A DNA stretch of 64,000 nt, taken from Nannocystis sp. (GTDB taxonomy: Bacteria > Myxococcota_A > Polyangia > Nannocystales > Nannocystaceae). The stretch spans positions 324,669 through 388,668 of the forward strand of contig NZ_JADJNN010000008.1 in assembly GCF_016714285.1 (NCBI RefSeq). Reading direction: 5' to 3'. The position numbers and the translations under genes are program-made. Below are positions 33,601 to 34,710 of this stretch, in pieces. A model generated the notes under the pieces. The model saw only the letters and a program-made list of their open reading frames with translations, did not search any database and had not been told where the DNA came from. Each line of letters opens with the position of its first letter. Positions within the stretch are counted from its first letter, which is position 1.

Positions 33601-34475
33601 GCGGCGCGGCGCAGACGCTGTGGAAGCTGCCGCAGCGGCCGCTGCGGGTCGCGCTGGCGGTCGATCCAGCGGGCCTCGCGGTGGCGGCGGGCGTGGCGTT
33701 CGGGGCGACGAGCGTGACGCTGATGGCAGAGCAAGCGGTGGGGACGGAGCCCTCGCCGCGCACGCGCACGATCGCGGCCGGGGTGCCGATCACGGCGCTG
33801 GCCCTCGATCACGCGGCGGAGCGCCTCGCGGTGGCGACCTGCAGCGAGCGGATCGGCCTGGCGACGTGCGCACGCGGCGAGGTCCGGGTGTACGCGGTCG
33901 CCAGCGGGGCCGAGGTCGCGGGTCCGCTGGCGGTCGATGGCGTGCACGGGCTGGTGTTCGCGGCCGACGGTCGACGCCTCGCCGGGCTCGTGCCCGGCGC
34001 GCCGCCGGTGGTGTGGGAGCTCGCCGACGGCGAGCGCCTCGCGTTGACGGTGCGCCGCTCGCTCGGCGAGTTCATCGCGGCCGACTTCTCCGCGGACGGC
34101 GACGTGCTGCTCGCCAGCGCCGAGGCCGACAACGCAGCGGTGGCGCTGACGCTGTGGGATCTGCGCTCCGGCGAGGAGCTGGCGCCGCCGCTGGTCGCCC
34201 ACAACCCCGCGGTCGGCAGCTTCGATCCGGGGGCGCAGCGGTCCGTGCTGCTGGCGCCGCACAGCGGGCTGGTGGTCAGCAGCAGCTTCGACGGGGTGCT
34301 GCTGTGGGATATCGCCGACGCGACGCTGACGAGCCGCGCGTGCACGCTGGCGGGGCGCGAGCTGACGAGCGCGGAGTGGACGAGGTTCCTCGGCCGCGGC
34401 GAGCCGCAGCAGGCGCAATGCGGCGCGCCGCTATCCGAACATCGACGCCGCGATGCTCCCGATCGGCGCCTATGA
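30650..34475 (+). CDS. STAND-class P-loop NTPase (same family as 19735-24240) + TM segment + WD40-like beta-propeller
   Basis: TTG start overlaps the upstream TGA (TTGA). PYVGPRALRSGEALFGRDRE. Walker A: LLYSPSGAGKSSLLQAGLVPRL. Walker B: VLLIDQFEELLT. TM helix TIRVLAAVVGLLVVAGLSVGIVLI. More than 10 repeats of the D-G/L-W type follow (LALAPDGALAVAG...TLWTVEGG...VTAWTVAGG...LTLWDLRSG). Confidence 0.8.
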
Positions 34476-34710
34476 CCCGGCCTGGTTCATGAGCAAGCAG
34501 CACATGAACCCCGAGGAGGCGGTGCAAGCCTTCGCGGACCTCGGCGCGCGCCGCTTCCTGGCGATGCACTGGGGCACCTTCAAGCTGACCGACGAGCCGC
34601 TCGACGAGCCGCCCAGGCGCCTGGACGCGGAGTGGCTGCGGCGCGGCTGGCCGCGGGAGCCGCTGCATGTGCTCGCGGTCGGCGCGAGCCTCACCGTCCG
34701 CAGCGGGTGA
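34425..34710 (+). pseudogene. 3' remnant of an MBL-fold metallo-hydrolase gene (NAPE-PLD/beta-lactamase superfamily C-terminus only)
   Basis: [60 protein letters not shown] is the conserved C-terminal block of MBL-fold hydrolases. It has no N-terminal HxHxDH region and no start. The upstream in-frame sequence is non-homologous and overlaps the NTPase 3' end. Confidence 0.6.

Follow-up and report, generated by a model that had tools for sequence, protein, structure and literature searches.

A 3′ remnant of a NAPE-PLD-like hydrolase gene at a probable recombination seam between accessory gene blocks in a Nannocystis genome

A short open reading frame of the MBL-fold hydrolase type directly follows a large nSTAND1-WD40 NTPase gene in DNA labelled Nannocystis. 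This arrangement raises the question of whether the reading frame marks the edge of a defence island, is the scar of a larger gene, or is a small gene in its own right. The question was addressed within the window, i.e. the whole 64-kb stretch of DNA that was analysed, the features of which are compiled in Table 1. Taken as a whole, the locus is best explained by a dead 3′ fragment of a hydrolase gene that very probably sits at an illegitimate-recombination seam between accessory blocks.

Table 1. Features of the window discussed in the text
Feature	Position	Strand	Evidence or remark
SLOG(LSDAT)-SLATT gene	18427-19719		
Second nSTAND1 NTPase	19735-24258	minus	
TIR-caspase-SIR2 protein	24240-26462	minus	
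OmpA-family gene	27727-28572		
CHAT-SIR2 gene, upstream partner of the nSTAND1-WD40 gene	28609-30651	+	Pfam CHAT 7.4e-25, SIR2_2 1.4e-16; PADLOC SAVED_CHAT / ThsA-like
nSTAND1-WD40 NTPase gene	30648-34475	+	Pfam nSTAND1, E 5.6e-37; P0122 (1275 aa) 99% identical
Junction microhomology CGCC	34426-34429	+	End of WD40-cassette homology overlaps start of MBL homology
3′ remnant of NAPE-PLD-like MBL-fold hydrolase gene	34426-34710	+	Codons 218-311 of 311 plus stop; PF12706, tblastn, nucleotide identity
85-aa ATG ORF inside the remnant, judged a pseudogene fragment	34453-34710	+	100% identical to RefSeq WP_293252429.1
Leftover 3′ flanking DNA of the MBL gene, forming the right end of the fragment	34711-34725	+	blastn homology to orthologs
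Type II (Eco57I/TaqI-like) N6-adenine DNA methyltransferase, first gene right of the remnant	34794-36566	+	PADLOC MTase_II PDLC03313, E 1.2e-216, full length; Pfam Eco57I 8.5e-26; called in L087
C25-like peptidase	56053-58011	minus	
CHAT gene	59250-61316	minus	

The frame carrying the remnant is open from 34366 to 34710 and matches the Pfam family Lactamase_B_2 (PF12706) with 47.9 bits (E 1.6e-12; gathering cut-off 27 bits), in profile positions 150-200 of 200 only. An earlier note on this DNA had described a truncated C-terminal piece of a NAPE-PLD-like MBL hydrolase lacking the metal-binding N-terminal half, and both parts of this description were borne out when the alignment to intact orthologs that it had proposed was carried out. 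Full-length orthologs exist and comprise 311 aa (Archangium minus, L006; a metagenome-assembled genome, L035). In tblastn searches of the window with such proteins, residues 220-309 only were covered, and an alignment of five sequences placed the start of homology at 34426, corresponding to codon 218, the coding end at 34707 and the stop at 34708-34710. The remnant holds 94 of 311 codons, and the complete alpha-beta/beta-alpha MBL domain of ~250-310 residues is not present. Homology at the DNA level extends 12-15 nt beyond the stop, with blastn end points at 34725 for L081 and at 34722 for four other loci (L002, L016, L019, L023). The 3-kb Logan contig L081 carries the closest intact relative of the remnant (92.5% nucleotide and 96% amino acid identity), compared to 85-87% nucleotide identity with Hyalangium/Myxococcaceae orthologs, and it has nothing in common with the window outside 34421-34725. 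The MBL gene of L081 (1593-2529) itself shows two pairs of compensating +/-1 indels in comparison to the orthologs, one of the shifted segments holding a stop, which points either to errors of sequencing or to ongoing gene decay in the organism concerned; the intactness of even this nearest copy is therefore in doubt.

Human NAPE-PLD (PDB 4qn9) was matched by the intact 311-aa orthologs (E 4.3e-54), the alignment spanning residues 58-306. The zinc ligands of this enzyme we take to be the HxHxDH residues together with a His, an Asp and a His further on. The orthologs exhibit HxHxDH as SHNHYDH near residue 115, and this motif, QHW and HSGDT are all located upstream of the breakpoint and thus absent from the remnant, in which the His of HWGTF (AMHWGTF) is the only metal ligand retained (one of seven). 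Lacking HxHxDH and having a single metal ligand left, the remnant cannot, we infer, act as an enzyme. The N-terminal 217 residues left no trace in the 64-kb window, as assessed by tblastn and blastn with two full-length orthologs and with the 5′ 650 nt. Upstream of residue 218, MBL homology was found neither in any frame nor anywhere in the 64 kb, and no other MBL-homologous sequence besides the remnant is present in the window. An N-terminal half lying intact nearby in an alternative frame, which the earlier note had named as the observation that would speak against its reading, was looked for throughout the 64 kb and not found.

The remnant had been placed next to the NTPase-WD40 gene, and this neighbourhood could be resolved to an exact recombination junction at which the two homologies meet at 34426-34429. 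Besides P0122, the closest relatives of the WD40 gene are P0123 (94% identical, encoded on L082) and P0124 (87% identical, on L083-L086). The DNA of L082 is homologous to the window from 30393, inside the CHAT-SIR2 gene, up to 34429 (95.4% over 4049 nt), and that of L083-L086 up to 34428 (89.1%), with no match beyond. At this point the stop codon is lost in the window, which reads TGC GGC GCG CCG CTA TCC GAA in comparison to TGC GGC GCG CCC TGA in L082. While P0123 terminates with ...RQALCGAP*, the window protein terminates with ...QQAQCGAPLSEHRRRDAPDRRL*, and more than 30 members of the nSTAND1-WD40 family end 2-4 residues past the conserved final Cys, in comparison to 17 residues in the window protein. 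The join removed the own stop of the WD40 gene, and 14 extra codons are therefore read (34431-34472, LSEHRRRDAPDRRL) up to the TGA at 34473-34475, all of them being remnant DNA read out of frame. The nSTAND1-WD40 protein hence carries an artefactual tail of 14 residues. The WD40 gene overlaps the MBL-homologous part by 50 nucleotides (34426-34475, ~17 codons) rather than by the 50 codons given previously; its overlap with the frame open from 34366 is ~36 codons.

The immune-type, two-gene CHAT-SIR2/nSTAND1-WD40 unit occurs in differing contexts among relatives. It is 87-95% identical in L082 and L083-L086, and divergence begins right after the stop. In L082, a JGI contig, the cassette stop is followed by an unrelated minus-strand gene (4054-4572), and in the four Logan contigs L083-L086 by a small ORF and then kdpA (3852-5065; Pfam KdpA 2e-98), i.e. 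a kdpF/kdpA context. The DNA 3′ of the cassette resembles nothing in the window in either case. The right edge of the cassette is its stop codon in three lineages, which fits cassette-wise turnover. Given this divergence directly past the stop, the CHAT-SIR2/nSTAND1-WD40 pair behaves as a movable cassette, and the junction provides a base-precise example of such a movable unit with its right edge at the stop.

The earlier note had proposed the remnant as the right-hand boundary of a defence island at 18-34 kb, a role that the genes on both sides do not support. The right-hand neighbour, the methyltransferase, is accessory in nature, and the DNA from there to ~42.2 kb encodes a metallophosphoesterase-like protein, a caspase/C25-like protease, a 295-aa protein and a second metallophosphoesterase, all accessory-looking rather than conserved core. 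On the left, the supposed island is broken by TrmO and the OmpA-family gene at 27.0-28.6 kb. Because of the accessory genes to the right and the TrmO/OmpA interruption of the left-hand island, the remnant is internal to a mosaic region; moreover, L081 has no flank in common with the window past 34725. The synteny comparison for an empty site that the earlier note had suggested was performed on 80 genome and 80 metagenome loci of MBL orthologs with 10-kb flanks, the recurrence of neighbours being taken from the first 80. None of the window genes other than the remnant was found beside an MBL ortholog in these first 80 genome loci, and the flanks of the MBL gene differ even between the closest orthologs and between close Myxococcia. 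Relatives of TrmO, the nearest core gene, at 81-84% identity match the window in the TrmO gene alone (27038-27491). This TrmO/TsaA gene is an isolated conserved segment, and its neighbours in relatives at 85-86% nucleotide identity (ceramidase, M48 peptidase, TerB) are not in the window. Neither an empty site nor a pre-truncation genome was found among the MBL-ortholog loci, L081 and the TrmO relatives. The whole region of 18-42 kb is mosaic, not merely the surroundings of the remnant, and the remnant marks a seam where two accessory blocks meet within it. Nothing was found in favour of a boundary role, which is improbable, and the remnant is unusable for delimiting the defence island.

The junction probably arose through one illegitimate recombination event in which the very end of the WD40 gene was joined to codon 218 of the hydrolase at CGCC, most likely a deletion, or else a one-sided replacement during cassette turnover. 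Such an event would have removed hydrolase codons 1-217, including HxHxDH together with five further metal ligands, any DNA between the WD40 and the hydrolase genes, and the stop codon of the WD40 gene, thereby creating the 14-codon out-of-frame run-on to the TGA inside the remnant. Of the two origins considered previously, insertion or deletion, deletion or one-sided replacement fits the data, whereas a simple insertion is at odds with them: it should have left the 5′ part of the hydrolase gene across the insert, which is absent from the 64 kb. The mechanism would then be a microhomology-mediated deletion or replacement, although a GC-rich microhomology of 4 bp in DNA with a G+C content of 73% is weak evidence of mechanism, its chance occurrence amounting to ~1-3% by rough estimate.

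The history of the fragment before this event can be read in two ways. We lean towards a hydrolase gene that was resident at the site before it was truncated, and consider import as a fragment a possible but doubtful alternative. According to the latter, the piece of ~300 bp was never resident but is the relic of a site in a Myxococcia-type donor at which an insertion had occurred earlier, and it came in together with an accessory block such as the methyltransferase block. In a tree of 93 aa, the remnant and L081 are embedded in a clade of 29 members, among the matches listed, that consists of Myxococcia only (Hyalangium, Archangium, Cystobacter, Myxococcus, Corallococcus); Hyalangium branches as sister, followed by Archangium/Cystobacter and then by Myxococcus/Corallococcus, and Polyangia entries fall outside. 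This tree is a neighbour-joining tree of 93 residues whose nodes carry no support values, and its orthologs are those among the matches listed, where Nannocystis ones may be missing. Among the same matches, amino acid identity amounts to 84-89% with Myxococcia entries and to 64-77% with Polyangia/Polyangiaceae entries, and the host, labelled Nannocystis, belongs to the class Polyangia.

This affinity to Myxococcia hints at a horizontal origin, either of the fragment or of the ancestral whole gene, and an import accounts for the clustering no worse than the decay in situ of a gene long resident in the genome would. The fragment is sharply delimited on both sides, and neither flank is common to L081 as the closest intact ortholog, as would be expected for an imported piece. 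Sharp edges, however, say little here, because the synteny of the MBL gene is unconserved even among close Myxococcia. Against the import also stands that no Eco57I-like methyltransferase was found within 10 kb of the MBL gene in the first 80 loci. The G+C content at third codon positions (GC3) was tried as a test of foreign origin and rejected, since the values overlap and do not discriminate (remnant 0.96, host genes 0.93-0.95, most orthologs 0.91-0.96). That the fragment is a fossil of a previous insertion site, moved from Myxococcia to Nannocystis with a defence or methyltransferase cassette, appears unlikely on this evidence. If true, such remnants could serve as provenance tags for the inter-class traffic of immune cassettes among myxobacteria, and a Myxococcia-like origin, once confirmed, would lend modest support to an exchange of cassettes between myxobacterial classes.

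A genuine small gene, in which the 85-aa ORF is expressed with a function of its own, e.g. as a peptide from the MBL C-terminus that serves in regulation or as a decoy, is very improbable. The ORF has been called as a protein in RefSeq, where WP_293252429.1 is named “MBL fold metallo-hydrolase [Nannocystis sp.]”, its frame is uninterrupted for 94 codons, and a pairwise comparison of the remnant with L081 gave a dN/dS of 0.14, similar to that of pairs of intact genes. However, the start of the ORF sits inside the extended WD40 gene, and the MBL homology begins in frame 27 nt upstream of the first ATG, so that the breakpoint is not the start codon and the pattern is that of a truncated rather than a new gene. 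A family of stand-alone short homologs was not found, the short matches being contig-edge partials or frameshift products, and a look-up of the contig index with the exact 85-aa protein sequence yielded no record. With changes polarised by six outgroups, six nonsynonymous and three synonymous substitutions were assigned to the remnant branch, among them an E to A exchange at an otherwise invariant Glu, compared to none and four on the L081 branch (one-sided Fisher p = 0.049, on tiny counts). This nonsynonymous excess suggests, on small numbers, that the remnant was truncated fairly recently and has since been under weaker constraint. A promoter-like site was not detected by a sigma-70-only scan, which found none in shuffled sequences either; for a promoter or terminator role of the remnant, the scan gave no sites and is uninformative in DNA of this G+C content. 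No gene is called between the WD40 gene and the methyltransferase in the GenBank annotation of GCA_016717175.1, a second assembly of the same species. We judge the 85-aa RefSeq protein to be an annotation artefact derived from a pseudogene fragment, and it should be annotated as a pseudogene.

Equally improbable is a site-specific integration scar, in which an integrative element targeted the hydrolase gene in its 3′ part and supplied a new 3′ end, the displaced original one staying behind at the far border, so that the remnant would be a true element boundary. The model for this is icd′ at the border of the E. coli prophage e14, a 3′-end duplication through site-specific integration, and the geometry of our locus is superficially right, namely a lone 3′ gene end beside mobile-looking, horizontally acquired genes. 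In contrast to icd′, however, neither a full-length copy nor another part of the gene exists within the 64-kb window, the search for direct or inverted repeats flanking the cassette returned GC-rich matches at chance level only, and a Pfam scan of ~45 large ORFs of the window revealed no integrase, recombinase or transposase domain. The stop of the neighbouring gene was destroyed as well, unlike in a conservative site-specific event. A recurrent breakpoint or integration hotspot had been suggested by many MBL “proteins” of 84-91 aa that start from the same Met, and was rejected, as these are long-read frameshift artefacts or partial sequences: in L169 the N-terminal MBL part is present as a separate upstream call, and the genes of L168, a long-read contig, are widely fragmented.

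Finally, an assembly chimera, in which a short GC-rich repeat led to the fusion of two unrelated contigs, might be suspected in a metagenome-assembled genome with an overlap of merely 4 bp at the join, but it is hardly credible, because an overlap of this size is much too short to mislead an assembler and the same junction is present in two assemblies, the 915-kb contig JADKFZ010000004.1 of GCA_016717175.1 (670572-694399; 99.3% identical to the window over 24 kb) being 100% identical over the 420 nt from 34381 to 34800 while ~0.7% of positions differ elsewhere.

Several observations were made in the surroundings of the remnant. To its right, at 36603-42204, two metallophosphoesterase-like genes flank the caspase/C25-like protease and the 295-aa protein. 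The protease displays an SHG...ACYG dyad by eye and an HTH-like C-terminus, and the 295-aa protein gave no match in Pfam, NCBIfam or PADLOC. The block could be a candidate for an uncharacterised defence module composed of a protease and an effector, and that the 295-aa protein might be gasdermin-like is only a thought. The alignment of the window (40702-40734) with the sister assembly (L087, 19987-20087) breaks where the 295-aa protein has its acidic C-terminal repeat (EEPPLESLADED...), which suggests a variation of the repeat copy number between strains. On the left, a tandem unit of 15 nt in ~7-8 copies, GACTCGCTTTGTCCG-like, is located at 27728-27856 at the 5′ end of the OmpA-family gene, and across TrmO the cluster at 18427-26462 is a second, separate STAND-type conflict system. 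At 56053-63153, the minus strand carries CHAT, C25-like peptidase, DUF7790 and OmpA-family genes adjoining an ECF sigma factor; the CHAT-plus-OmpA pairing found here repeats that at 27.7-30.6 kb. Genes of phospholipid metabolism lie at 3074-8623 (a cNMP-binding patatin/NTE-like phospholipase, a CDP-alcohol phosphatidyltransferase and CdsA), a theme close to that of a NAPE-PLD-type hydrolase, but they are 25 kb away from the remnant, and no linkage of phospholipid-metabolism genes to the MBL gene was observed across 80 ortholog loci.

In comparison with known systems, the remnant shows 83-96% identity with the C-terminal ends of NAPE-PLD/UlaG-like MBL hydrolases (PF12706), but with the last 94 residues only it represents part of a member gene and no member protein. 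On the left side, an nSTAND1-WD40 NTPase behind a CHAT-SIR2 protein resembles the nSTAND1 NTPase conflict systems with CHAT/SIR2 effectors, nSTAND1 having been named together with CHAT and SIR2 in conflict systems (Kaur, Iyer, Burroughs & Aravind 2021, PMC8195603). The peculiarity of the present cassette is the out-of-frame C-terminal extension made by the junction. The closest likeness is to ordinary pseudogenes truncated by a deletion or at a junction of illegitimate recombination, with which the locus shares the sharp one-sided truncation, the short microhomology, the damaged stop of the neighbour and a setting free of mobile-element machinery; a relaxed constraint is hinted at by small counts. 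Nothing substantive distinguishes it from these, the sole oddity being a Myxococcia-like fragment in a Nannocystis-labelled genome, and the remnant is an ordinary kind of gene scar.
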